A stretch of DNA of 64,000 nucleotides, from assembly GCA_947177185.1 (NCBI GenBank), contig CAMWTJ010000004.1, positions 32,175 through 96,174 on the forward strand, read 5' to 3'. Every line of letters starts with the position of its first letter. Positions within the stretch are counted from its first letter, which is position 1. This stretch comes from an uncultured Porphyromonadaceae bacterium (GTDB taxonomy: Bacteria > Bacteroidota > Bacteroidia > Bacteroidales > Muribaculaceae). The notes beneath the pieces were generated by a model. The model was given only the letters and a program-made list of their open reading frames with translations. It had not been told where the DNA came from and searched no databases. A program made the translations under genes and the position numbers. This document shows, piece by piece, positions 1,736-12,862 of this stretch.

Positions 1736-2461
1736 ATGGCCGATTTCCTTCTCTCCCTGATAGCCGACGTGTTCAGCGACGACGTCACCACCTTCGGCGC
1801 CATCGTGCGCTTGTGCCTCAGCATGCTGCTGGGCAGCTGCGTGGGCATACAGCGCAAGCGCAAGGGCCAGCCGGCCGGCGTGCGCACGTTTTCGCTCATT
1901 AGCATGGGGGCCACACTGGCCATGCTCCTCAGCATCTACGTGCCGCAGGAATACCTCGGCCTCAAGAACGGCGATCCCGGCCGCATAGCCGCCCAGGTGA
2001 TCAGCGGCGTGGGCTTCCTGGGCGCCGGCGCCATCATACAGATGAAAGGCTCCGTGCGCGGCCTCACCACGGCGGCCGGCATATGGATGGTGGCCGCCAT
2101 CGGCATGTGCGTGGGCGTAGGGCTCTACACCATCAGCATCGTGGCCACGCTGCTGATTCTGCTCGTGCTCGTGCAGGTGGAGCGCATAGAGCATGTCACC
2201 TCTATGGGAGCCGACTCACGCATCATACGCATCGAGGCCACCACGATAGTGGCCGACATAGAGCCTTACCGCATGGCCCTGCGCTGCGGGGGCGCACAGC
2301 TCAAGAGCTTCTATCTCACCTACGACTACGAGCGCCGCGTCACCAATCTCAACCTCGTGGTGCTGCTGCGCGAAGGCATCGACGTGCTGGCCGTACTCAA
2401 CAGCCTTGAACACGTGAGCCCCACGCGCACCATCACTTTGGCCAATCAGCTGAACATTTAA
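1736..2461 (+). CDS. MgtC/SapB family membrane protein
   Basis: Motifs AGVRTFSLISMGA, DPGRIAAQVISGVGFLGAG and VRGLTTAAGIW. Confidence 0.9.
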   Translation: MADFLLSLIADVFSDDVTTFGAIVRLCLSMLLGSCVGIQRKRKGQPAGVRTFSLISMGATLAMLLSIYVPQEYLGLKNGDPGRIAAQVISGVGFLGAGAIIQMKGSVRGLTTAAGIWMVAAIGMCVGVGLYTISIVATLLILLVLVQVERIEHVTSMGADSRIIRIEATTIVADIEPYRMALRCGGAQLKSFYLTYDYERRVTNLNLVVLLREGIDVLAVLNSLEHVSPTRTITLANQLNI

Positions 2462-3131
2462 TCGGGAGGCTAAAGCGCCGCCTGGCGCAGAATGTCTGCC
2501 GCCACCTGCGTGCCGCACGCCTCGAGGCGCTCCTTGAGGCGGCGCCGGCGGCTGTACATGGTGTTTTGCTTCATGCCGGTGAGGCGGCATATGGTGCCGG
2601 TGTCCATGCGCGCCAGCAGCAGCGCCGCCAGTGTGAAATCGTCGTCACGTATCGCGCCGTCGCTCTGCGCCGCAGCTATGATGCCGCCGAATGTCGAGTC
2701 TATCTCCTTCACCAGCTGCTCCAGTTGCTCCGGCTGCGCCATGCGCTCGAGTTCCGACTCTATTTGCCTCAGCACCCTGCGGCGGCTGCTGTCGGAGTCT
2801 TCGAGGCCGCGCAGCTGCTTGTTGAGCATGTTGAGCGTGGCCCATTGCCTTCGGTATATCAGCTTCAGTCGGTCGTGCATATCGGCGTTCTGCTCCTGTC
2901 CGGCGCACACATCGCTCTGCAGCAGCAGAATCTCGCCCATCTGAGCCTCTATGCGCATGTCCTTCAGGCGCATGCGCATGCGGTGGTAGTACGTGCCGCC
3001 CGCTATGGCCAGTGCCGCCGCCACCATGCCGGCCGTGAGCCATATGCGCAGCCACATGGCCCGCTCCTTCTCCTGCGCGGCTATTTTGTCGTAGTAGTTG
3101 CGCTGCTCCACCACTATCGACTGATTCAATT
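2455..3131. repeat. Direct repeat copy 1 (about 677 bp), pairs with 4166-4843
   Basis: By eye, identical to 4166-4843 apart from a 1-nt indel and two substitutions near the left end; the ORF track shows near-identical shadow ORFs at 2492/4204 and 2645/4357. Confidence 0.95.
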
Positions 3132-4104
3132 TCTGCTCGAGCAGCTCGTTTTGCTGCTCTATCAGTTTGGCCTTGTATGCGAGGGCTTCCTTGTAGTTTT
3201 GCTGCTGTGAGTAAAGATAGGAGTAGGCGTTGTATATAGCGGCTTTTTCTTCGATAGTCGTGGCATACTTGTCGGCAAATTCGAGATGCGCGGCAGCGTT
3301 TTCATAATCTCCGGCCCATGTTTCAACAGTGGCCATATAAGCCACCTCTTGCGTATATTCCGGGTTCATGTAGCCGATCATCTGCGGAATCATAGTCTGT
3401 GCTTCGGCGTATTTATCGTGCTTTACAAGATAGGAAAAATACGCGGTGGTGGCATAATAAAGCAACATGGAGTCCTGCGGCGGCTGCGATGCGAGATGGA
3501 TTACGCTGTCGAATAATGCGTCGCCTTTGTCGCACCCTTCTATATTGCCATAGGTTATTGCGAGCTCGCAGAGCGCGAAGCGATGGTTCCGCTCTTTTCC
3601 GGCTTTTTTGTAATACTCGACCGTTTTGCGGGTGTAATCCAAGGCTTCTTTCAGCATATAGGAAAAGAACATTATATCGGATATAGCTTCAGTAGATTTT
3701 GCCATCCAATAATAGTCCTGCTTCGATTCTGCCATTGAATAGGCCTCCATTAAAGGAATTATGGCATCGTCGTACCGCTTGCAGTTTGTTTCCACGACGC
3801 CTTTGTAGAAAAGCGCCTTCATAAGCCTTTCCTTATCGCCGTTTCTGCGAAATGCTTGCACCGAGCGCTCTATCAGAGAGTCCGACAATTCTATATGGTG
3901 CGTTTTGGTCCGGGCTTGCACATACAGCAATCCATATAGTGGCGAGCTCTTGTGCTCTTGCTCAACACCGTTTACTATGGCCAATGCCGAGTCCGGGTAT
4001 TCCTCAATAATCCGTTCCGCTTCCAGTAACTGCGGGTCGTAATGATTTTTGCATGCAGATAATAATACCAACAGAGAACTGGCAAATACTATTAAATGTT
4101 TCAT
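2470..4104 (-). CDS. Lipoprotein-TPR-TM-HTH one-component sensor/regulator, paralog 1
   Basis: Lipobox LLSAC, helical TPR-like middle, TM (WLRIWLTAGMVAAALAIAGGTYY), C-terminal LuxR-like HTH (DFTLAALLLARMDTGTICRLTGMKQNTMYSRRRRLKERL). Confidence 0.75.
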   Translation of the reverse strand: MKHLIVFASSLLVLLSACKNHYDPQLLEAERIIEEYPDSALAIVNGVEQEHKSSPLYGLLYVQARTKTHHIELSDSLIERSVQAFRRNGDKERLMKALFYKGVVETNCKRYDDAIIPLMEAYSMAESKQDYYWMAKSTEAISDIMFFSYMLKEALDYTRKTVEYYKKAGKERNHRFALCELAITYGNIEGCDKGDALFDSVIHLASQPPQDSMLLYYATTAYFSYLVKHDKYAEAQTMIPQMIGYMNPEYTQEVAYMATVETWAGDYENAAAHLEFADKYATTIEEKAAIYNAYSYLYSQQQNYKEALAYKAKLIEQQNELLEQKLNQSIVVEQRNYYDKIAAQEKERAMWLRIWLTAGMVAAALAIAGGTYYHRMRMRLKDMRIEAQMGEILLLQSDVCAGQEQNADMHDRLKLIYRRQWATLNMLNKQLRGLEDSDSSRRRVLRQIESELERMAQPEQLEQLVKEIDSTFGGIIAAAQSDGAIRDDDFTLAALLLARMDTGTICRLTGMKQNTMYSRRRRLKERLEACGTQVAADILRQAAL

Positions 4105-4141
4105 AATACTAAAGCATAAACTTACTGCAAAGATATGAAAA
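4036..4141. repeat. Direct repeat copy 1 (106 bp: promoter, UTR and signal peptide), pairs with 5757-5862
   Basis: Four mismatches by eye; each copy contains a minus-strand TATCTTTG -7 box (4128-4135 and 5849-5856). Confidence 0.9.
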
Positions 4142-4165
4142 TCCCAAGCGTACCATCACTCTGGT

Positions 4166-4843
4166 CATTTAATCGGGGAGGCTAAAGCGCCGCCTGGCGC
4201 AGAATGTCTGCCGCTACCTGCGAGCCGCACGCCTCGAGGCGCTCCTTGAGGCGGCGCCGGCGGCTGTACATGGTGTTTTGCTTCATGCCGGTGAGGCGGC
4301 ATATGGTGCCGGTGTCCATGCGCGCCAGCAGCAGCGCCGCCAGTGTGAAATCGTCGTCACGTATCGCGCCGTCGCTCTGCGCCGCAGCTATGATGCCGCC
4401 GAATGTCGAGTCTATCTCCTTCACCAGCTGCTCCAGTTGCTCCGGCTGCGCCATGCGCTCGAGTTCCGACTCTATTTGCCTCAGCACCCTGCGGCGGCTG
4501 CTGTCGGAGTCTTCGAGGCCGCGCAGCTGCTTGTTGAGCATGTTGAGCGTGGCCCATTGCCTTCGGTATATCAGCTTCAGTCGGTCGTGCATATCGGCGT
4601 TCTGCTCCTGTCCGGCGCACACATCGCTCTGCAGCAGCAGAATCTCGCCCATCTGAGCCTCTATGCGCATGTCCTTCAGGCGCATGCGCATGCGGTGGTA
4701 GTACGTGCCGCCCGCTATGGCCAGTGCCGCCGCCACCATGCCGGCCGTGAGCCATATGCGCAGCCACATGGCCCGCTCCTTCTCCTGCGCGGCTATTTTG
4801 TCGTAGTAGTTGCGCTGCTCCACCACTATCGACTGATTCAATT
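4166..4843. repeat. Direct repeat copy 2 (about 678 bp)
   Basis: See 2455-3131; encodes the shared TM and HTH C-terminus. Confidence 0.95.
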
Positions 4844-5825
4844 GTTTTTCAAGTTCTTTGTTCTGCCCTTTAATTACAAGCCTGTTGTATCGCGCAACTT
4901 TGGGGTAGTCTTTAAGCAGTTCGTAAATAAATGAATAAGCATTGTATATGTTGACACTGTCAATAACATCAGTAGCATAAGATTCGGCATCCTTCATTTG
5001 CGAAAATGCCTCGTTATAATTTCCTAAATGTGCATCTAACTCGGCACTGCATACAATATTGTAGGTCAGTGGATATTTTTTGTTGAATTCTTTCATGAGT
5101 GCATGATACCGTAGGGCATCACTGTATTCTTTATACTCAACATGGTCTACAAACCTTGGAGCTGTGCAATAGTATAATAAGCCCGAATCAGCGGGGCTAA
5201 CGGTAGAAATAACGCTATCAATAAGAGTTGCGAACGATTTACGGTCTTTCAAATGAAGGTGCTCAACGGCTATATCGCACAATATATATTTATGATTAAG
5301 TTCTATTCCTGCATCCTTAAAACCTTTTGCAGCAATTGTCCAATACTTTAAGGCATCTTTAAATAAATGGCAATTTCTGAATAAATCGCCCAATAACATC
5401 GCTATCCGTGCTTTCCAGATTGTATTGTCCTTGCTTTCCGCTATTTCAAAACTTTGTGTGGCAGGAATAATCGCCTTATCATACTCTTGTTTATAGAATA
5501 GGAGTGTCGCGTAATAATACAAAGACTTCATCAGCCGCTCCTGGTCGTTATCCGTTTTAAAATGGTCCATAGACTCAAGAAGCATGGATGCAGTAGTGTC
5601 TATATAATTATTCTTGTGCCGGGCCTGTGTGTATAACAAGAAATATAGTGCGCGGTCTGACTTAAGCGCAAAGTCGGCGTCGTCGATTGTTTCAATTATT
5701 GAAAGGGCCGAATCAGGATGTTCTTCCATGATATTCTCAGCATGGAGAAGTCGGGTGTCGTAATGATTTTTGCATGCAGGTAATAATACCAACAGAGAAA
5801 TGGCAAATACTATTAAATGTTTCAT
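4182..5825 (-). CDS. Lipoprotein-TPR-TM-HTH one-component sensor/regulator, paralog 2
   Basis: Same architecture as 2470-4104 (signal ends LLPAC), near-identical C-terminal ~220 aa, divergent TPR-like middle. Confidence 0.75.
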   Translation of the reverse strand: MKHLIVFAISLLVLLPACKNHYDTRLLHAENIMEEHPDSALSIIETIDDADFALKSDRALYFLLYTQARHKNNYIDTTASMLLESMDHFKTDNDQERLMKSLYYYATLLFYKQEYDKAIIPATQSFEIAESKDNTIWKARIAMLLGDLFRNCHLFKDALKYWTIAAKGFKDAGIELNHKYILCDIAVEHLHLKDRKSFATLIDSVISTVSPADSGLLYYCTAPRFVDHVEYKEYSDALRYHALMKEFNKKYPLTYNIVCSAELDAHLGNYNEAFSQMKDAESYATDVIDSVNIYNAYSFIYELLKDYPKVARYNRLVIKGQNKELEKQLNQSIVVEQRNYYDKIAAQEKERAMWLRIWLTAGMVAAALAIAGGTYYHRMRMRLKDMRIEAQMGEILLLQSDVCAGQEQNADMHDRLKLIYRRQWATLNMLNKQLRGLEDSDSSRRRVLRQIESELERMAQPEQLEQLVKEIDSTFGGIIAAAQSDGAIRDDDFTLAALLLARMDTGTICRLTGMKQNTMYSRRRRLKERLEACGSQVAADILRQAAL

Positions 5826-5862
5826 AATACTAAAGCATAAACTTACTACAAAGATACGAAAA
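5757..5862. repeat. Direct repeat copy 2 (106 bp)
   Basis: See 4036-4141. Confidence 0.9.
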
Positions 5863-5966
5863 ACTATCCGACAATATGCAATTTATATCAAAATATACGT
5901 AACGAGCAGATATTCAGCGCGTTTGGCGTCTAATGCCTAATGTTCGTATTTTCAGAGTATTATATA

Positions 5967-6042
5967 GTGCACAAAATATTTATTTTGTGCACGTTGTAAT
6001 GCGCTTATAATTAATACTATAAGTCTTTGAGTGCACAAAATA
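5967..6042. promoter_or_regulatory. Candidate operator: perfect 12-bp inverted repeat plus a third half-site
   Basis: GTGCACAAAATA-TT-TATTTTGTGCAC at 5967-5992, and GTGCACAAAATA again at 6031-6042. Confidence 0.6.
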
Positions 6043-6056
6043 AATATCGTTCTAAA

Positions 6057-6088
6057 TTTGGATACATATTATGTGACGCTTAATTTTG
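6057..6088 (+). promoter_or_regulatory. Sigma-A promoter of the DUF3244-rSAM-precursor operon
   Basis: TTTG (6057-6060), 20-nt spacer, TAATTTTG (6081-6088): full Bacteroidetes consensus. Confidence 0.75.
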
Positions 6089-6103
6089 CAAAAAACTAAC
6101 GTG

Positions 6104-6487
6104 ATGAAAATTCAGAGTAAAATAGTCTGCTTGCTGTCTATTATAATGACACTTTATGCAGCACCAATCAGCCAAGCGATGGATGTACGAGATACGTCAA
6201 CTATAATCACGTTGAAATTGAGAGGAGGGCGCCCTGATTTACCGAAGATGCCGTCGCGTCAGCGCATCACGTGTGTTTATGAGGACGGAACTCTGTATCT
6301 TGAATTCAAATATAGCGAAGGCGAGGCGGTGCTTTCCGTCACAGACCTTTGCCATGGAGGCTGCACTGAGCACGTTTTCTCTACAGATGCCCCCGCACTT
6401 ATATATATTGGCGCTGTTGAAGCGGCGACCATTGAGATTTATACAGAAAGCGGCAGCGAATACGTGGCCGAAATTATGGATTACTGA
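6104..6487 (+). CDS. DUF3244-like secreted small protein
   Basis: Signal peptide MKIQSKIVCLLSIIMTLYAAPISQA; pattern P-x-MPSRQRITCVYEDGTLYLEF...IEIYTESGSEY resembles DUF3244; divergent from TPR regulators, as that family usually is. ATG at 6104 preferred over TTG at 6086. Confidence 0.6.
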   Translation: MKIQSKIVCLLSIIMTLYAAPISQAMDVRDTSTIITLKLRGGRPDLPKMPSRQRITCVYEDGTLYLEFKYSEGEAVLSVTDLCHGGCTEHVFSTDAPALIYIGAVEAATIEIYTESGSEYVAEIMDY

Positions 6488-6499
6488 CAAAAGAGCACC

Positions 6500-7789
6500 A
6501 TGAAGCAGAGCATTTTCAATACGTGCATACAGCTTGACAATGGGTTTACCATTGTCTACAATGCGTTTTCCGACAAATATGTGGTGTGCGGTTCGGAGGC
6601 AATCTCAATCGACGGCCACCAAATACACAACTGTTCAGAATTGGTTCGCGCCCGCCTTGAAGAGATTGGTGCGTATGTGCCCGATGATGTCGACGAACAG
6701 CGCATGCTTGAAGAGCGCATAGAGCGCGTCGACAACGACTCTGCATGTTTTGAACTGCATGTGAATCCTACGCTTAACTGCAATTTTCGTTGTTGGTATT
6801 GCTACGAAGAGCACTTGCCGGGTTCAAAAATGGACGCCGCAACCATTGAGGCGCTGTGCAGGCTGATATCTCTGAAGCTCGACGAAACAGAAGGCTTGGA
6901 ATCGTTTAATCTGTCTTTTTTCGGTGGCGAGCCTCTGCTGTACTATTCCGAAACTGCTTTGCCGGTGATAAGACACGCCGTGAAAGCCTGTGCCGGCAGG
7001 GGTGTGCACCTATGGCTGCATTTCACTACTAATGCCTATCTGCTTTCGGAGCAAATTCTTGAAAGCATAGGCGACGTCGACGCCAGTTTTCAGATTACAC
7101 TCGACGGTGCCAGAGAGCAACACGATAAAGTGCGTTTTCAGGCCGGTGGCAAAGGCAGTTACGATGCGATTCTCTCAAATGCACGCAGAGCTGCATCTTA
7201 TGGCAAGCATATCATATTGCGAATCAATTACACTGCCGACAGCATCGCCACGGTGGGCTCCATTGCCGATGAACTACGTGAATTCGGCAGTGAGAAACGC
7301 AATATCACAATTGATCTGCAGCGAGTATGGCAGGACAATGGATGTGCGGCGGACGAAGAACGCGTGCAGGACGACGTGGACAGGCTGTACAGACTGTTTC
7401 GCAGCGAAGGATTCATGTGCAGCACGCCGTACATACGCAATTCTGTGCTGGATTCGTGCTATGGCGACAAGCGCAATTCGATATTGATAAATTACAACGG
7501 CGATGCCTTTTTCTGCACGGCGCGTGATTTTAAGAGCGCCGACCGTGCGGGATTCCTTGCATCGGACGGCAGAATAGTGTGGGAAAACAACGCTCTCGAG
7601 CGCAGGATGGCCGCAAAGTATAAAAGTGCCGCATGCAGGCAGTGCCGCATAGCTCCGATTTGTGGCGGCGGATGCCGGCAGCGCGCGGTGGAAATGGCCG
7701 GTTCGGACGATTGCCTTGTCGGCTTCTCAGACCGGGAACGCACGGAACGGGTGGTCCGGCGCTTCGAACAGATGCATATACCCGCATGA
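6500..7789 (+). CDS. Radical SAM/SPASM-domain peptide maturase
   Basis: CNFRCWYC (CxxxCxxC), FFGGEPLL, QITLDG; SPASM cysteines SCYGD...GDAFFC and CRQCRIAPICGGGC...DDC. Confidence 0.9.
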   Translation: MKQSIFNTCIQLDNGFTIVYNAFSDKYVVCGSEAISIDGHQIHNCSELVRARLEEIGAYVPDDVDEQRMLEERIERVDNDSACFELHVNPTLNCNFRCWYCYEEHLPGSKMDAATIEALCRLISLKLDETEGLESFNLSFFGGEPLLYYSETALPVIRHAVKACAGRGVHLWLHFTTNAYLLSEQILESIGDVDASFQITLDGAREQHDKVRFQAGGKGSYDAILSNARRAASYGKHIILRINYTADSIATVGSIADELREFGSEKRNITIDLQRVWQDNGCAADEERVQDDVDRLYRLFRSEGFMCSTPYIRNSVLDSCYGDKRNSILINYNGDAFFCTARDFKSADRAGFLASDGRIVWENNALERRMAAKYKSAACRQCRIAPICGGGCRQRAVEMAGSDDCLVGFSDRERTERVVRRFEQMHIPA

Positions 7790-7854
7790 TGCTTGCATAT
7801 GGAGCAGCCGGAAAATCCATAAAAGAGTACGGACAAATATCTAAACCAAAACAA

Positions 7855-8118
7855 ATGAAACTAACAAAGATTGAGCAGTTCGTCAGCACACTTGTTGACC
7901 CTGCAATGCCCGCCGACCAGCAGGCGCTTGTTCTTGGCGCCGATTTGGCATTACTGGGAGGCGACAACACCCAGACATGCATTAATCATACTGCAGCGGC
8001 ATGCGGCTCGGAAAATAGGGGATGCACAAACTATGGTGAAGCATGCAGCGAGGGTAGTAATTACAAGTGTACAAATAAAATTCAGCTCAACAACAGCTTA
8101 ACGAGGCCGTGCCAATAG
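7855..8118 (+). CDS. Double-glycine RiPP precursor peptide (87 aa; 36-aa leader, 51-aa six-Cys core)
   Basis: ATG at 7855 after an A-rich TIR (ctaaaccaaaacaa), in the frame of ORF 7633-8118. Leader ends ALLGG; core DNTQTCINHTAAACGSENRGCTNYGEACSEGSNYKCTNKIQLNNSLTRPCQ. Lies directly after the rSAM gene and upstream of a C39 exporter. Confidence 0.85.
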   Translation: MKLTKIEQFVSTLVDPAMPADQQALVLGADLALLGGDNTQTCINHTAAACGSENRGCTNYGEACSEGSNYKCTNKIQLNNSLTRPCQ

Positions 8119-8256
8119 TGCACGTGTATTTGTACATGTAGACTGAGATGGCAGAGCTCTGTGCCGCGAAAAGTGATATAATTATATATGATTAAGGCTT
8201 ACGCAGTTATGATGCTTGCCGATACCTGTCAGACCAAGAACGTGACAATTTGTTGA

Positions 8257-8306
8257 TAACTTTGTCGGCATATTGTTGCGTTCTTGTGTCTGTCGCTGTA
8301 AATTTG
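8257..8306 (+). promoter_or_regulatory. Candidate internal promoter(s) for the barrel and exporter
   Basis: TAACTTTG at 8257-8264 and TAAATTTG at 8299-8306, the latter with GTTG 20 nt upstream. Confidence 0.45.
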
Positions 8307-8349
8307 CAGTGAAATATAGTTCGTGAACGTTGCATTAATAGTGAATTCT

Positions 8350-10668
8350 ATGGTGAAAGCTATCATTTTGACAGTCGGTCTGGCGCTTGCGCCGGGGGCT
8401 GTGGCCTTCGGGCAGCAAAGCGCATTGCGCTTCGGGGTATATGATGCCGACGGCGAGCCCGCGGCGGGAGCAGTGGCCACACTGCTCAGCCGCAGCGACT
8501 CAACCATCATCGACGCGGCCATAGCCACGGCAGAGGGTCAGGTGGTGTTTCCGGCCGACAGCCTTGCGTGGCGCATGGTCGATATCTCTTATCCGGGCTA
8601 TGTGTCGGTGCGCATCGGCGCTTCCGAGGTGCCGGATTCGGTGCGTCTGGCGGTGTCGGCCACCGAGCTGCAAGAGCTTGTGGTGCAGGGACAGACGCTG
8701 CAGCGCGCGACCGGACGCTTTATCTACGACCCCGGCAGCCTGCGCCGGGAGCTGCCCAACGTTTACGAGATACTGCGCTTCACACCCATGGTGCACTTCC
8801 AGGACGGTGTGGCCTCTATCATATCAAAAGGCACAGCAAAGATATACATCAACGGCCGCGACCCGAAAATGCCGCAGGCAGCCCTTGCCGAATATCTCCG
8901 CTCCATTCCGGCTCAGGAAATCAAACGCATAGAAATAGTGACCAATCCGGGCAGCACTCAGCGCGCAGGCGACGCATCCGGCATTGTGAACATTGTAATA
9001 GAAAAGCCCGACGACGGCCTGCTGGGCAGCGCCTCTGCCTCCACAGGCTATGACGACCGCTTTGTCAGAGCGAGGTCAAGCGTGTGGCTCGGCTACAAGC
9101 GCGGAAAATTTTCGGCTTCGGGATCCATCGCTTATCAGCGCTGGGGCAACCGTAGCAAAACCGAGTCGGACTATCGCTATGCGGTGCCCGAAGAGAAATC
9201 GGTGAGCAACACCACCACAGCCTATTCAGCCATCGACGTGCTGGGCGGCAGTGCCGTGGCCGAGTACGCGTTTACGCCGAGCAGCACACTGGGCGCCTCA
9301 TTAAATGTATTCGGCGTATCGGTGGGCGAACACTCCGAAGTGCATACCGTGACTTCCACTCCTGCCGCTACGGCGGAGCTGTCGGCGATGCATGTGAACA
9401 CGCGCACTCCGTGGGTGCGCCCGGAGATAGGCGCGGTGCTTTATTATACCTTGCGCACCGACGAGCTCGGCAGCACTCTGGATGTGACGGCCGACTATTC
9501 CCTGCGGAAGACGGTTACCAACACCGACTACAGCAGCGACGGCAGCCACACGTGGCAGAACACGGCTGTCAGCGGCCACGGATTCAGCTTCACACCTAAA
9601 TACAAATGGATATTGAGCAACGCCCACCGGCTGGATGCTGGCTACGACTTTGTGACCGCCTACATGGACAATAAAAGCGATTTTGCAGGACAGAAAGACG
9701 ATTTTACCTACGATGAAACGGTGCAAAGCGCTTTTGTGCAGTGGAAATCGAAATGGAGCGATGTGTTTTCCGCAGAGGTGGGCATACGCGTCGAAAATTC
9801 ACGGATCAAGGGAGTGTCGCCGGATGCATCGGAGTCGTTCTCGCGCACTTACACCGATTGGTTTCCCTCGCTCAGCCTCAACTTTGACCTGCCGCACTCG
9901 CAGAACCTGTCGCTGGAATTCCAGCGCCGGATTGTTCGCCCGTTCTACAGCACTCTGAACCCGTTTGTGCGCTGGACCTCGTCCACCACATGCACTGCCG
10001 GCAACCCCGACCTGAGGCCGGATTACCCTTGGGACGTTACGCTGTATTATTCTTTCTTGAACGGATTTGTGCTGTCGGCCCACTATACTTACGAATCCGA
10101 AAGTCTGGGCGACTATACTTTCGGCCGCGGGGGCATCACCGTTACGGGCTGGGACAATTTCGGACGAGTACATAGTTTTGTACCATCGCTGTCCTATGCC
10201 AAAACGGTCGGAATCTGGACCGTGAGAGCCTCAACGAATGGAAGCTATAGATATGAGGAAGCAACACTGGACGGCGCCGATATGGGCTATAGTCATTGGA
10301 CTTGGGGGCTGAGTTTTATCAATCACTTTGCTATCTCCAAAAAACACAATTTCGGAGCGGAAATGTTCTATATTGCCATGTCGCCGTGGCAAGCCCTGGG
10401 CCGCCAGAGCAAATGGAAAAATCTGCTCGACGTAAGCCTGAGAAAGGGCTTCAACTCGGGATGGTACGTGTCGCTTAATGTGAGCAACATACTTAATTTC
10501 AGCAACGTGTACCATTACAATTCGCCCGATTACAGCTACGACAACCGCTCGCTGTACAATGGCGTGGGCTTCTCCCTGTCCGTCAGCTACACTTTCGGCA
10601 AGTATCAGGTGAATGCCGCGGAGGGAAAAGGCAGCGACAAAATGTCGGGACGCTACAGCAGTTTCTGA
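8350..10668 (+). CDS. TonB-dependent-receptor-like outer-membrane beta-barrel protein
   Basis: Signal peptide from ATG 8350, carboxypeptidase-regulatory-like N-domain, LQELVVQG, plug motif LRSIPAQEIKRIEIVTNPG...GIVNIV, barrel with IVRPFYSTLNPF and terminal strand FSLSVSYTFG. Confidence 0.8.
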   Translation: MVKAIILTVGLALAPGAVAFGQQSALRFGVYDADGEPAAGAVATLLSRSDSTIIDAAIATAEGQVVFPADSLAWRMVDISYPGYVSVRIGASEVPDSVRLAVSATELQELVVQGQTLQRATGRFIYDPGSLRRELPNVYEILRFTPMVHFQDGVASIISKGTAKIYINGRDPKMPQAALAEYLRSIPAQEIKRIEIVTNPGSTQRAGDASGIVNIVIEKPDDGLLGSASASTGYDDRFVRARSSVWLGYKRGKFSASGSIAYQRWGNRSKTESDYRYAVPEEKSVSNTTTAYSAIDVLGGSAVAEYAFTPSSTLGASLNVFGVSVGEHSEVHTVTSTPAATAELSAMHVNTRTPWVRPEIGAVLYYTLRTDELGSTLDVTADYSLRKTVTNTDYSSDGSHTWQNTAVSGHGFSFTPKYKWILSNAHRLDAGYDFVTAYMDNKSDFAGQKDDFTYDETVQSAFVQWKSKWSDVFSAEVGIRVENSRIKGVSPDASESFSRTYTDWFPSLSLNFDLPHSQNLSLEFQRRIVRPFYSTLNPFVRWTSSTTCTAGNPDLRPDYPWDVTLYYSFLNGFVLSAHYTYESESLGDYTFGRGGITVTGWDNFGRVHSFVPSLSYAKTVGIWTVRASTNGSYRYEEATLDGADMGYSHWTWGLSFINHFAISKKHNFGAEMFYIAMSPWQALGRQSKWKNLLDVSLRKGFNSGWYVSLNVSNILNFSNVYHYNSPDYSYDNRSLYNGVGFSLSVSYTFGKYQVNAAEGKGSDKMSGRYSSF

Positions 10669-10684
10669 TTCATCAGCCGCCACA

Positions 10685-12862
10685 GTGAAATTCAGGCGCA
10701 TATTCTCGTATCAGCAGACCGAACGCTCCGATTGCGGCATGGCATGCATACGCATCGTATGCCGCTATCACGGCCTGTGTGTGCCCATGAGCTACCTGAG
10801 GCATCATGTGGAAACCGGCCGCCTCGGAATCTCGGTGCGCGACATCGTCGCGGCTCTCGGCGGGCTGGGCATGCACAGCATGGCGGTGCGGGTGGGCGTA
10901 GACGACCTGCGCACCATGCCTTTGCCGGCCATATTGTATTGGAACAGGCAGCATTTTGTGGTGCTGTATAAGGCGGATGTCGACAAGGGAGTGTTTAGTG
11001 TGGTCGACCCCTCCGAAGGCAAAATGAAATACCGTACCGACGATTTCAGCGAGTATTTCGTGGCCAACGACGGAAAAGGCATAGCAGTGCTGGCGGAGCC
11101 CGACGAAACGTTCGAGAGCCGTCAGAAGGACATGCCGCCCGACGAGCGCCGCCTGCCGCATCTTGCCGCCCGCATAGTGCGCGAACACTCCGGGCCGTTT
11201 GCGGCGGTGTGCGCGTTCATGCTGCTGGCCATGGGAGCCGACGTGGCGTTGCCGTTCGTGTTTCAACGCACCATAGACGAGGGCATACACAGCGGCGACA
11301 TTCAGCTCATATGGCTGCTGGTTTTCTCGCAGCTGTTTATCTTCTTTGGAAACTACCTGTCCAACTGTGTGGTGGAGTATCTGCTCACGAAGATAGGCCT
11401 GCGCATGAGCATACGCATGATAAACGATTATCTCAAGAAGATCATTTGCCTGCCTATGAGCTTTTTCGCGACCAAGGTAAGCTCCGACCTTATCCAGAAA
11501 GTCGACGACCACAACCGCATACAGAACTTCATGGTGTCGCTGCCCGACACGCTGGTGTTCACGGTGATAAATGTCGTGCTGTTTTCCGGCATATTGATTT
11601 ATTTCAGCCGCACGGTGTTTCTGATATTCATAGTGTGCACGCTGCTGAGCGTGGTGTGGACGGCGCTGTTCATGCGCAGACGCCGCGAGGTGGACTATGC
11701 GTATTTTTCGAAATTGTCGGAAAACCGCAACAATCTGTACGAACTCGTCAACGGCATCGACGAGATAAAGGCCAACTGCGCGCAGCATCAGCGTCTGTCC
11801 ACATGGGACAAGGTGCAGTCGAGAATCAACGACCTGTCGCTCCGCAAGGCTATGCTCAAGATGTATCAGAATGGCGGCAATGTGTTTTTCGTGCGCTTCC
11901 GCGATATTGCCATCACGGGCATTTGTGCCACCCTTGTGGTCAGGGGCGAAATGTCCATAGGCCTGATGATGACACTCAGCTACATTGTCGGGCGGCTTTC
12001 CGCACCGTTTGCCAACCTGATAAACTCGGTCAATATGTTCCAGGACGTGAGCATGTCGTACGACCGCATTGAGGAGGTGATGAACGCCGACCTTGCCGAC
12101 GGACGCGTGCTGCCCGCGCCGCAGTTCGACTCGGTGGAGTTCCGCGACGTGCGTTTCCGCTACCCGGGAGCCGGCACGCCGTTTGTGCTCCACGGCATTG
12201 ACCTGACGATACCCCGCGGACGCACCACCGCTATCGTGGGGCCCAGCGGATGCGGGAAGTCGACGGTGCTGAAGATTCTTCTCGGCTTTTTCAACCCCAC
12301 GTCGGGTGAGGTGCTGGTGGAGGGCGTCAGGCTCGACAGCATATGCGAGGAATCGTGGCTCTCGAAAATGGCGGTGGTGATGCAAAACGGCAACCTGTTT
12401 TCTGGAGATATACTCACCAATATCGCGCTGTCCGACGCCGAGCCGGACCTCGGTCGTGCGCGCAGGGCTGCCGAAATAGCCTGTATCGATGAGTTCATTG
12501 ACAGCCTGCCCATGGGCTTCAGCACCCCGGTAGGGAAAATCGGCATGGAAATAAGCGGAGGGCAGAAGCAGCGTCTGCTCATTGCGCGGGCCATATACCG
12601 CTGCCCGGAAATTATAGTGCTCGACGAGGCCACGTCGTCGCTCGATGCCATTACCGAACGCAGGGTAATAGAAAACATAATGGCTGAATTCCGAAACCGC
12701 ACGGTAGTGATAGTGGCGCACAGACTGAGCTCCGTCAAAAACGCCGACAACATCATAGTGATGGACAGCGGGCGCATAGAGGAGCAGGGCACGCATGCGC
12801 AGCTGCTGTGCGGCGGCGGCCGCTACTACAGCCTGGTGGAGCACCAGATGGAATTCGCTTGA
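10685..12862 (+). CDS. Peptidase-containing ABC transporter (C39 + TMD + NBD)
   Basis: C39 residues QQTERSDCG, LYWNRQHFVVLY and VVDP; Walker A GPSGCGKST, signature ISGGQKQR, Walker B IIVLDEAT. GTG at 10685 is the likely start. Confidence 0.92.
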   Translation: MKFRRIFSYQQTERSDCGMACIRIVCRYHGLCVPMSYLRHHVETGRLGISVRDIVAALGGLGMHSMAVRVGVDDLRTMPLPAILYWNRQHFVVLYKADVDKGVFSVVDPSEGKMKYRTDDFSEYFVANDGKGIAVLAEPDETFESRQKDMPPDERRLPHLAARIVREHSGPFAAVCAFMLLAMGADVALPFVFQRTIDEGIHSGDIQLIWLLVFSQLFIFFGNYLSNCVVEYLLTKIGLRMSIRMINDYLKKIICLPMSFFATKVSSDLIQKVDDHNRIQNFMVSLPDTLVFTVINVVLFSGILIYFSRTVFLIFIVCTLLSVVWTALFMRRRREVDYAYFSKLSENRNNLYELVNGIDEIKANCAQHQRLSTWDKVQSRINDLSLRKAMLKMYQNGGNVFFVRFRDIAITGICATLVVRGEMSIGLMMTLSYIVGRLSAPFANLINSVNMFQDVSMSYDRIEEVMNADLADGRVLPAPQFDSVEFRDVRFRYPGAGTPFVLHGIDLTIPRGRTTAIVGPSGCGKSTVLKILLGFFNPTSGEVLVEGVRLDSICEESWLSKMAVVMQNGNLFSGDILTNIALSDAEPDLGRARRAAEIACIDEFIDSLPMGFSTPVGKIGMEISGGQKQRLLIARAIYRCPEIIVLDEATSSLDAITERRVIENIMAEFRNRTVVIVAHRLSSVKNADNIIVMDSGRIEEQGTHAQLLCGGGRYYSLVEHQMEFA

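Follow-up and report, generated by a model that had tools for sequence, protein, structure and literature searches.

Tandem paralogous regulators with a common C-terminal half and different sensors beside a peptide operon in a mouse-gut Muribaculaceae bacterium

We have analysed a 64-kb stretch of DNA from a mouse-gut Muribaculaceae bacterium (GenBank contig CAMWTJ010000004.1, positions 32,175 to 96,174). This whole stretch is called the window, and the coordinates of all features are window positions. Two neighbouring genes taken from its open reading frame (ORF) list, regA (2470-4104, minus strand, 544 aa) and regB (4182-5825, minus strand, 547 aa), lie head to tail and encode paralogues with the same architecture and different sensors. 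regB is divergent from an operon for a ribosomally synthesised peptide with post-translational modifications (RiPP), which is headed by a DUF3244-like gene. We consider it likely that the pair was shaped by duplication, replacement of a 1.4-kb cassette and ongoing gene conversion, which would give an identical output with two inputs for the RiPP operon.

The two genes were compared block by block with BLASTN and MAFFT/global alignment. The segments 2455-3131 and 4166-4843 are 99.6% identical over 678 columns, and within them lies a strict constant block (2464-3131 in regA and 4176-4843 in regB, both on the minus strand) of 668 bp with two mismatches (2503/4215 and 2511/4223). This identity ends abruptly at 3131|3132. 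The middles that follow, each of about 910 bp (3132-4035 versus 4844-5756), are only ~45% identical in DNA, with 19 to 25 matches per 50 nt, and the sensors that they encode agree at 104 of 307 aligned positions (34%). Identity resumes in a 5' block of 106 bp with four mismatches (4036-4141 in regA and 5757-5862 in regB, minus strand). The shared blocks cannot be chance, and no further copy of the repeat was found by BLASTN within the window.

An earlier note on this DNA had described the same anatomy, i.e., constant ends around a different middle, with a 3' end of about 677 bp and three differences, a shared 5' stretch of 106 bp and four differences, and middles homologous at the protein level. 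Its coordinates and counts were right within a few bases. It had also read the 106 bp as “promoter plus signal peptide.” The signal peptide makes up most of the block, as claimed, but there is no whole promoter, since upstream of the ATG the block contains only 37 nt with a -7-like TATCTTTG (4128-4135 in regA and 5849-5856 in regB).

The pair forms a perfect head-to-tail tandem, with unit 2420-4141 followed by unit 4143-5862 and the junction at 4141|4143. The 33 nt located 3' of the regB stop codon (4143-4175, no strand assigned) are a degraded copy of the 3' end of mgtC, which flanks regA. When compared with 2420-2463, this duplication scar shows six substitutions and an 11-bp deletion.

regA, regB and the DUF3244-like gene appear to be cut at an internal Met in the publicly available gene calls of the contig, giving products of 450 aa (P0028), 462 aa (P0002) and 79 aa (P0180) from which the signal peptides and the low-GC 5' parts are missing. 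The full-length starts used here are backed by homologues and by a near-invariant lipobox Cys.

Both proteins begin with a lipoprotein-type signal peptide (LLSAC and LLPAC), and the Cys18 of regA is nearly invariant among 127 relatives. The AlphaFold2 (AF2) model of regA built on these relatives reached a mean predicted local distance difference test (pLDDT) score of 92, with helical repeats over residues 24-326, a single long helix over 330-433 and a compact helical domain over 439-541. A hydrophobic stretch at residues 351-373, followed by RMRMRLK, represents the putative transmembrane (TM) segment (354-376 in regB), and the C-terminal helices 487-497, 502-509 and 513-530 are compatible with a helix-turn-helix (HTH). 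Foldseek matched the tetratricopeptide repeat (TPR) part to the peptide-binding LGN/Pins, Rap and NprR and to MalT domain III, a fold that suggests peptides as the sensor ligands. From the model we infer that regA and regB are one-component regulators spanning the inner membrane, with a periplasmic TPR sensor, a TM/coiled-coil helix and a putative HTH. The constant block encodes the juxtamembrane helix, the TM segment, the coiled coil and the C-terminal domain. Because it starts about 25 residues ahead of the membrane helix, the variable part corresponds exactly to the periplasmic sensor.

The coiled coil on the predicted cytoplasmic side of regA (aa 414-478, 2700-2860) gave weak PDB matches to the heptad repeat 1 (HR1) of the coronavirus spike S2 (E~2e-4). 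Homology to HR1 was rejected and the matches were taken as heptad-repeat composition; the other PDB matches of regA were also coiled-coil look-alikes.

The two proteins belong to a large family. An exhaustive profile search returned 30,503 cluster representatives (of clusters at 50% identity) at E<=1e-3 and 3,190 at E<=1e-30, mostly full length. A word-indexed protein search had given 19-25 matches, an apparent rarity that the exhaustive search exposed as a sensitivity artefact. Against the profile BT3442_fam, regA and regB scored 38.0 and 39.3 bits (cut-off 940), and a weak match to the FimS TPR sensor was also obtained. Scans of the GTDB representative genomes and of the JGI metagenomes gave no relative with the exact constant C-terminal half, and the species or the locus is absent from the sets scanned.

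The locus was then compared among strains that are 98-99% identical in nucleotide sequence in the flanks and represent one species. L001 and L002 contain one A-type gene, with a sensor 97% identical to cassette A (3132-4035, minus strand, TPR domain) and with another signal peptide and intergenic region than the window. In L003/L004, from another sample, the A-type gene is present as an A-A tandem that has the junction and the 11-bp-deletion scar of the window. The mgtC-proximal copy of L004 carries the B-type 5' block, as does regA of the window, whose 5' block is unlike the L001 5' end. The window is collinear with L004 except for 4844-6240, which corresponds to L004 9577-10976, both of about 1.4 kb. 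This cassette (no strand assigned) comprises sensor B (4844-5756, minus strand, TPR domain), the signal peptide, the intergenic promoter region and codons 1-46 of the DUF3244-like gene, and its right-hand crossover lies inside the latter.

These haplotypes bear on several claims of the earlier note. It had argued that the pair was no simple recent duplication, and this is borne out by near-identical strains, in which either a single A gene or an A-A tandem is found, the latter agreeing with the window in junction and scar. The middle-region variation looked for in relatives is present, in the form of single A, A-A and A-B haplotypes. Its proposal of recombination or gene conversion was likewise sustained, as the window differs from L004 by one 1.4-kb replacement and the constant halves evolve in concert within genomes. 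The suggested route, a sensor exchange via the constant flanks, was correct as to the exchange; the exchanged unit is larger (4844-6240), and its right crossover falls in the DUF3244-like gene and not in the 106-bp block.

Concerted evolution is seen in the 668-bp block. Within a genome, the A and B copies of the window differ at two positions, and so do copies 1 and 2 of L004. Between genomes there are 8-15 differences (9-13 for the window versus L004), and at seven sites both L004 copies have one base and both window copies the other. Since the scar with its 11-bp deletion is common to the window and L004, the duplication is older than the strain split. That the paralogues are nonetheless closer to each other than to the copies of the other genome is therefore the mark of concerted evolution by gene conversion. 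In L004 the conversion extends through the homologous sensors, which differ at 5 of 913 sites, and in the window it stops where the homology stops.

The GC content at third codon positions (GC3) gave a concordant picture. It is 0.84 in the constant half and 0.81-0.86 in the flanking host genes. Lower values were obtained for sensor A (0.58), sensor B (0.39), the signal peptides (0.25-0.30), the 5' part of the DUF3244-like gene (0.39) and the maturase gene of the peptide operon (0.58), and the GC3 step coincides exactly with the identity boundary. This pattern indicates that the sensors and the operon are compositionally foreign and that the output half is native or long resident.

Over 3132-12862 the GC3 values form a gradient, from 0.39 (sensor B and DUF3244-like 5' part) and 0.58 (sensor A and maturase) to 0.69 (outer-membrane protein) and 0.75 (exporter). 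Such a composition would suit a peptide operon that was imported earlier and has since been ameliorated in part.

Taken together, the data are compatible with a history in three steps. In the first, a regulator unit would have been duplicated head to tail, before the split of the window strain and L004. In the second, homologous recombination would have swapped the 1.4-kb cassette in the operon-adjacent copy, with crossovers where the juxtamembrane/output half and the beta-sandwich part of the DUF3244-like gene begin, importing a sensor B, promoter region and DUF3244 N-terminus of low GC and foreign composition. In the third, continuing gene conversion would act wherever the tandem copies are homologous, keeping the output half, and in the window also the 5' block, nearly identical and halting where homology ends. 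Two different periplasmic inputs would then lead to one identical TM/dimerisation/DNA-binding output, in which the DNA binding, the target operon and the nature of the ligand are putative.

Several points weigh against this history or parts of it. The boundary between the B-type 5' block and the A-type sensor falls in 9 nt common to all three types (4036-4044, codons HYD), and the presence of this block in regA and in L004 copy 1 implies at least one earlier exchange at HYD, outside the three steps. The closest protein to sensor B found elsewhere is 36% identical in amino acids. The A-then-B order rests on short-read assembly logic, with no long read across the 668-bp repeats. The C-terminal domain matched no curated DNA-binding family at significance in the profile libraries. 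Sub-threshold hints of an HTH were obtained with HTH_36 for regA (E=0.041) and with GerE (E=0.01) and HTH_29 (E=0.09) for two relatives, and the HTH label reflects the helix pattern and the context. Finally, the possibility that the sensors track the RiPP core was rejected, because the precursor peptide is almost invariant across haplotypes.

The exact model of the earlier note was a single recent duplication followed by one import of the sensor middle through crossovers in the constant blocks, with no ongoing conversion. It would account for the near-identity of the sensor B flanks to those of regA and for the differences of 4% between the 5' blocks and 0.3% between the 3' blocks. We regard this model as unlikely, however, given that the scar and junction common to the window and L004 place the duplication before the strain split, and that the constant blocks of each genome have private substitutions in common, which needs repeated homogenisation. 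Moreover, the difference from L004 reaches 6240 and not 5756, and the scar 3' of regB is ~20% diverged while the adjoining coding block is 99.7% identical.

It is quite improbable, too, that the A-B tandem is an assembly chimera, in which an L004-like A-A strain and a single-B strain were threaded through the 668-bp repeat, A and B being alleles rather than paralogues. The repeat exceeds the short-read length and no Nanopore or PacBio run was found. In addition, the gut-metagenome run X1 mixes haplotypes, with an A-type sensor on an L001-type signal peptide, sensor B and two junction variants. Four gut-metagenome runs have Logan contigs with sensor B itself (99% identical), with contigs of X1 and X2 crossing 4843|4844, and the tandem joint (4142->2420) was seen in an X1 contig. 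The sole path that uses each segment once runs through mgtC, A, the junction, B and the operon. The junction-linked copy of the window reads A at 4215 and T at 4223, in contrast to both copies of L004, and so is not simply L004 sequence. The tandem architecture was also assembled independently in L004, which comes from a separate sample, and tandem mosaics occur in other genomes (see below). If the chimera were nevertheless true, the mosaic of a constant end and a swapped sensor would remain as an allelic polymorphism.

The second junction variant of X1 (at window 5862/2450) consists of the 5' block, 20 nt (TTCCAACACGCACCATCACT) and the 3' flank without the 11-bp deletion; hence, at least two kinds of tandem junction are present in the population.

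An ancient duplication without recombination, in which purifying selection maintained the output half and diversifying selection acted on the sensors, appears very improbable. Family-wide, conservation is somewhat higher in the C-terminal half than in the sensor, and in another tandem locus (L013, described below) the constant block shows 90% nucleotide and 95-100% protein identity, so that selection contributes there. Yet 668 bp with two differences, synonymous sites included, beside DNA that is ~45% identical is beyond what selection would do, and selection would account neither for a rise in GC3 from 0.39 to 0.84 at a single codon nor for the within-genome private substitutions. Upkeep of the constant half by selection only was thus rejected, being contradicted by the synonymous-site identity and by the strain comparison. 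Programmed variation (by a shufflon, by an invertase switch, by a diversity-generating retroelement or by the copying of silent cassettes to an expression site) could be suspected from the repeats flanking a variable region and from the several haplotypes at one locus, but it is hardly credible and its first three forms were rejected. The repeats are in direct rather than inverted orientation, each gene is a complete ORF, the sensors differ throughout and not at selected codons, and annotated relatives have no recombinase or reverse transcriptase in the 10 kb to either side.

We have then examined 29 loci from other Bacteroidales, which were scanned with profiles, including a custom DUF3244-like profile. 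In 12 of them the regulator has a DUF3244-like gene as its neighbour, and tandem arrays were found in L013 (two copies), L028 (three) and L030 (four, Paludibacter). The L013 sensors are 32-62% identical, while residues ~360-520 are 95-100% identical in amino acids and 91-99% in nucleotides over ~540 nt. Copies 2 and 3 of L030 are 96-100% identical in the last ~450 nt, with sensors at 56-89%. The tandem mosaic thus recurs in two other Bacteroidales lineages. The search for further genes with the same flanks and new middles, which the earlier note had called for, gave none elsewhere in the window and such pairs in the relatives L013 and L030.

The breakpoints recur as well. L013 has a homologous peptide operon (maturase 50% identical), and when this tandem locus is aligned with the single-copy L022, homology stops inside the DUF gene and resumes at the second regulator, with the same breakpoints as in the window/L001 comparison. 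In a third lineage, the stretch that differs between the L005 and L006 alleles begins at sensor residue ~140 and reaches the N-terminal tail of the DUF3244-like protein, with the boundary again at a PK(A/M)PSRQ motif.

The four regulators of L030 (2914-10937 of a Paludibacter metagenome-assembled genome) stand in a row, and the near-identical C-terminal ~450 nt occur in the middle two only.

The peptide operon of the window starts with the DUF3244-like gene, which encodes a secreted protein of 127 aa (6104-6487, plus strand). Its ATG at 6104 lies 279 nt upstream of regB, on the opposite strand. Codons 1-46 (6104-6240), specifying the signal peptide and a tail, are allele-specific, and the beta-sandwich part (6241-6487) is conserved. 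The gene is followed on the plus strand by a radical SAM/SPASM peptide maturase (6500-7789, identified by profile matches), a precursor peptide of 87 aa with a leader ending in LLGG and six Cys in the core (7855-8118), and an OMP_b-brl_3 outer-membrane beta-barrel together with a C39-peptidase ATP-binding cassette (ABC) exporter of the peptidase-containing ABC transporter (PCAT) type (8323-12862, from the L001 gene tables and ORFs). The precursor is nearly identical in L001, L004 and the window, the L001 peptide having one residue changed (E to G).

In L004 the precursor gene (7699-7962) differs from window 7855-8118 at 9 of 264 nt, with the C-terminal end IQQNNSASMPCQ versus IQLNNSLTRPCQ.

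The earlier note had called the operon-heading product a DUF3244 protein, which needs qualification. The 127-aa protein gave no Pfam match at E<=0.01 and no PDB sequence match to 3d33, which we take to represent DUF3244. Its AF2 model is poor (pLDDT 56, shallow alignment), the fold search returned nothing significant, and a homologue search retrieved only its own cluster. The protein is 39-41% identical to the L005 and L006 proteins that follow related regulators, which match DUF3244 at E=0.032, and 23% identical to an L010 protein that passes the DUF3244 threshold (25.9 bits, cut-off 25) and with which it has a P-x-P-S...Y-x-G-x-L-x-L-x-F motif in common. The neighbour is therefore termed DUF3244-like only, on the strength of transitive homology and position.

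In a third run, X3, a 9.3-kb operon contig extends from 6241 rightwards at a depth of ~197, compared with ~15 for mgtC and the regulators. Upstream of 6241 this contig has a third sequence (ATCAGTAGCTATAAGAAAACCGAATACAAG), which suggests another DUF-tail or regulator allele, presumably carried by a much more abundant strain.

The region between regB and the operon contains three exact copies of an operator-like element, GTGCACAAAAT, at 5967-5977 (plus), 5982-5992 (minus) and 6031-6041 (plus). The direct copies are 64 bp apart, all three lie within 75 bp, and they are the only matches with at most one mismatch in the 64 kb. The sites lie directly upstream of the -33/-7 elements of the DUF3244-like gene, i.e., a predicted Bacteroidota-type promoter of the peptide operon (6054-6088, plus strand) with a -33 TTTG within 6054-6064 and a -7 TAATTTTG at 6081-6088. 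The -33/-7 elements were called with the Bacteroides promoter consensus; a sigma-70 promoter scan, which is not meaningful for Bacteroidota, was used for terminators alone. In the intergenic allele of L001, GTGCACAAAAT and the promoter are conserved as islands and the remainder is ~45% identical. L022 has two copies of AAATTGTGCATCC 63 bp apart (TGCACAA repeat), and L013 has related sites.

A 31-nt imperfect palindrome (within 5948-6011) surrounds two of the three GTGCACAAAAT sites. A terminator-like hairpin called at 5987-6004 overlaps it and is probably the same feature.

Judging from this arrangement, both regulators probably act on the shared GTGCACAAAAT sites, controlling the operon and possibly themselves. 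The earlier note had concluded from the identical HTH that two inputs converge on one operator, which is reasonable and is strengthened by the conserved triple GTGCACAAAAT; the putative HTH itself has no counterpart among curated families. Because the membrane and coiled-coil helix is identical in both proteins, regA/regB heterodimers may form. The terminator scan gave no terminator-like site between regB and regA. As regA also has just a -7-like box, it is probably without a complete promoter and depends on read-through or co-transcription from regB.

The nearest analogues so far described are the SusR-like regulators (SusR, BT3705), a Bacteroidota-specific group of ~550-aa inner-membrane proteins that sense in the periplasm, activate adjacent operons and have a poorly classified C-terminal HTH that belongs to no known family. 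On the model, regA and regB would fit this layout, with a periplasmic sensor, a single TM segment and a cytoplasmic C-terminal HTH. Predicted SusR-like operators are direct repeats with a spacing of 67 or 77 bp (PMC3878776), to be compared with the 64 bp between the direct GTGCACAAAAT copies. The SusR_regulator profile (NF058541), however, matched neither regA, regB nor the C-terminal half, even at E<=10; one distant relative (P0150) matches it at E=1e-3 over 46 residues around the TM helix. SusR adjoins the susC/susD glycan locus, whereas regA and regB adjoin a RiPP operon. Unlike that of SusR, their sensor is a lipoprotein-anchored TPR domain whose nearest folds are peptide binders.

A distant relationship is found with the BT3442 family (NF053779). 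Relatives of regA and regB align to profile positions 6-546 of 563, i.e., distant full-length homology, and in both cases a TPR protein adjoins a DUF3244 or DUF3244-like gene (12 of 29 loci here). The scores far below the family cut-off place regA and regB in the same superfamily and not in that equivalog. BT_3442 is a TPR multi-domain protein beside BT_3441, the pair heading a cluster of secreted and pore-forming proteins, and the BT_3441 homologue BVU_0276 (PDB 3d33) has an immunoglobulin-like fold (PMC2954219). BT_3442 itself is uncharacterised.

TPR superhelices of similar size and curvature are also found in the RRNPP proteins (Rap, NprR, PlcR; Foldseek probability 1.0, TM-score ~0.6 on the target), which take part in peptide-linked regulation. 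Those proteins are cytoplasmic, with an N-terminal HTH or none, whereas the TPR domain modelled here would be periplasmic, with the HTH C-terminal behind a membrane helix.

As regards the genetics, tandem paralogues in concerted evolution are closer within a genome than to their positional orthologues despite an older duplication, as observed here. Conversion at this locus differs from the usual case in being limited to one gene half, the other half being replaced. A second parallel is agr of the staphylococci, where a hypervariable stretch with conserved bounds covers the sensor half of the receptor and the signal gene and defines discrete types within a species (PMC10482373); comCD and blpCH are similar pherotype loci. 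Here, three independent lineage pairs (window/L004, L005/L006 and L013/L022) show a variable stretch made up of sensor, promoter region and N-terminal tail of the DUF3244-like protein. The differences are that agr uses a histidine kinase, whereas the present locus has a predicted one-component HTH regulator, in another phylum and with other proteins and with no signal peptide pheromone identified, and that two types coexist here in tandem in one genome. Tandem gene conversion and allelic hypervariable sensor cassettes bounded by conserved DNA are thus already known (for the latter, agr, PMC10482373). What is new is their combination, the protein family, the recurrence in Bacteroidales and the consistent inclusion of the DUF3244 tail in the cassette.

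The agr parallel raises the possibility of a specificity cassette, in which the ligand of the TPR sensor would be the allele-specific N-terminal tail of ~21 residues that comes after the signal peptide in the DUF3244-like protein, or else a released peptide, and in which the orphan regA would hear other strains and drive a bacteriocin-like RiPP operon. We consider this reading speculative and rather unlikely. Sensor and tail would be inherited together, like agr pherotypes, and with tandem arrays whose output and dimerisation half is kept identical by gene conversion one cell would combine its own type with an orphan sensor, the cognate tail type of regA being absent from this genome. The co-inheritance points only weakly to a sensor-tail module, however, because adjacency alone could explain it. 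If true, the reading would reveal a widespread and unrecognised module of cell-cell or kin-discrimination signalling in gut Bacteroidales.

Irrespective of the ligand, the locus offers a population-resolved case in which a signal input appears to have been rewired with the output untouched, one gene half being converted and the other replaced by foreign sequence. The TPR regulators concerned form a very large Bacteroidales family (~30,000 clusters at 50% identity) with no curated domain model and no experimental study, whose members are often paired with DUF3244 and sometimes stand ahead of antimicrobial-peptide or toxin loci. It is in sensor, promoter region and DUF3244 tail, as the recurring mosaics show, that the module is evolutionarily active. 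Since the operon looks like one for a secreted, Cys-rich modified peptide that has an exporter to itself, antagonism or signalling at the strain level could be under the control of strain-specific sensor types in the Muribaculaceae, a dominant and poorly understood family of the mouse gut.

The gene content behind the regulator varies. The loci L005-L008 of another species have no RiPP operon, and L008 is without the DUF3244 and peptidase genes; the regulator and DUF3244 pair of that species precedes a C10 (streptopain-like) peptidase with an inhibitor I69 domain and a serpin.

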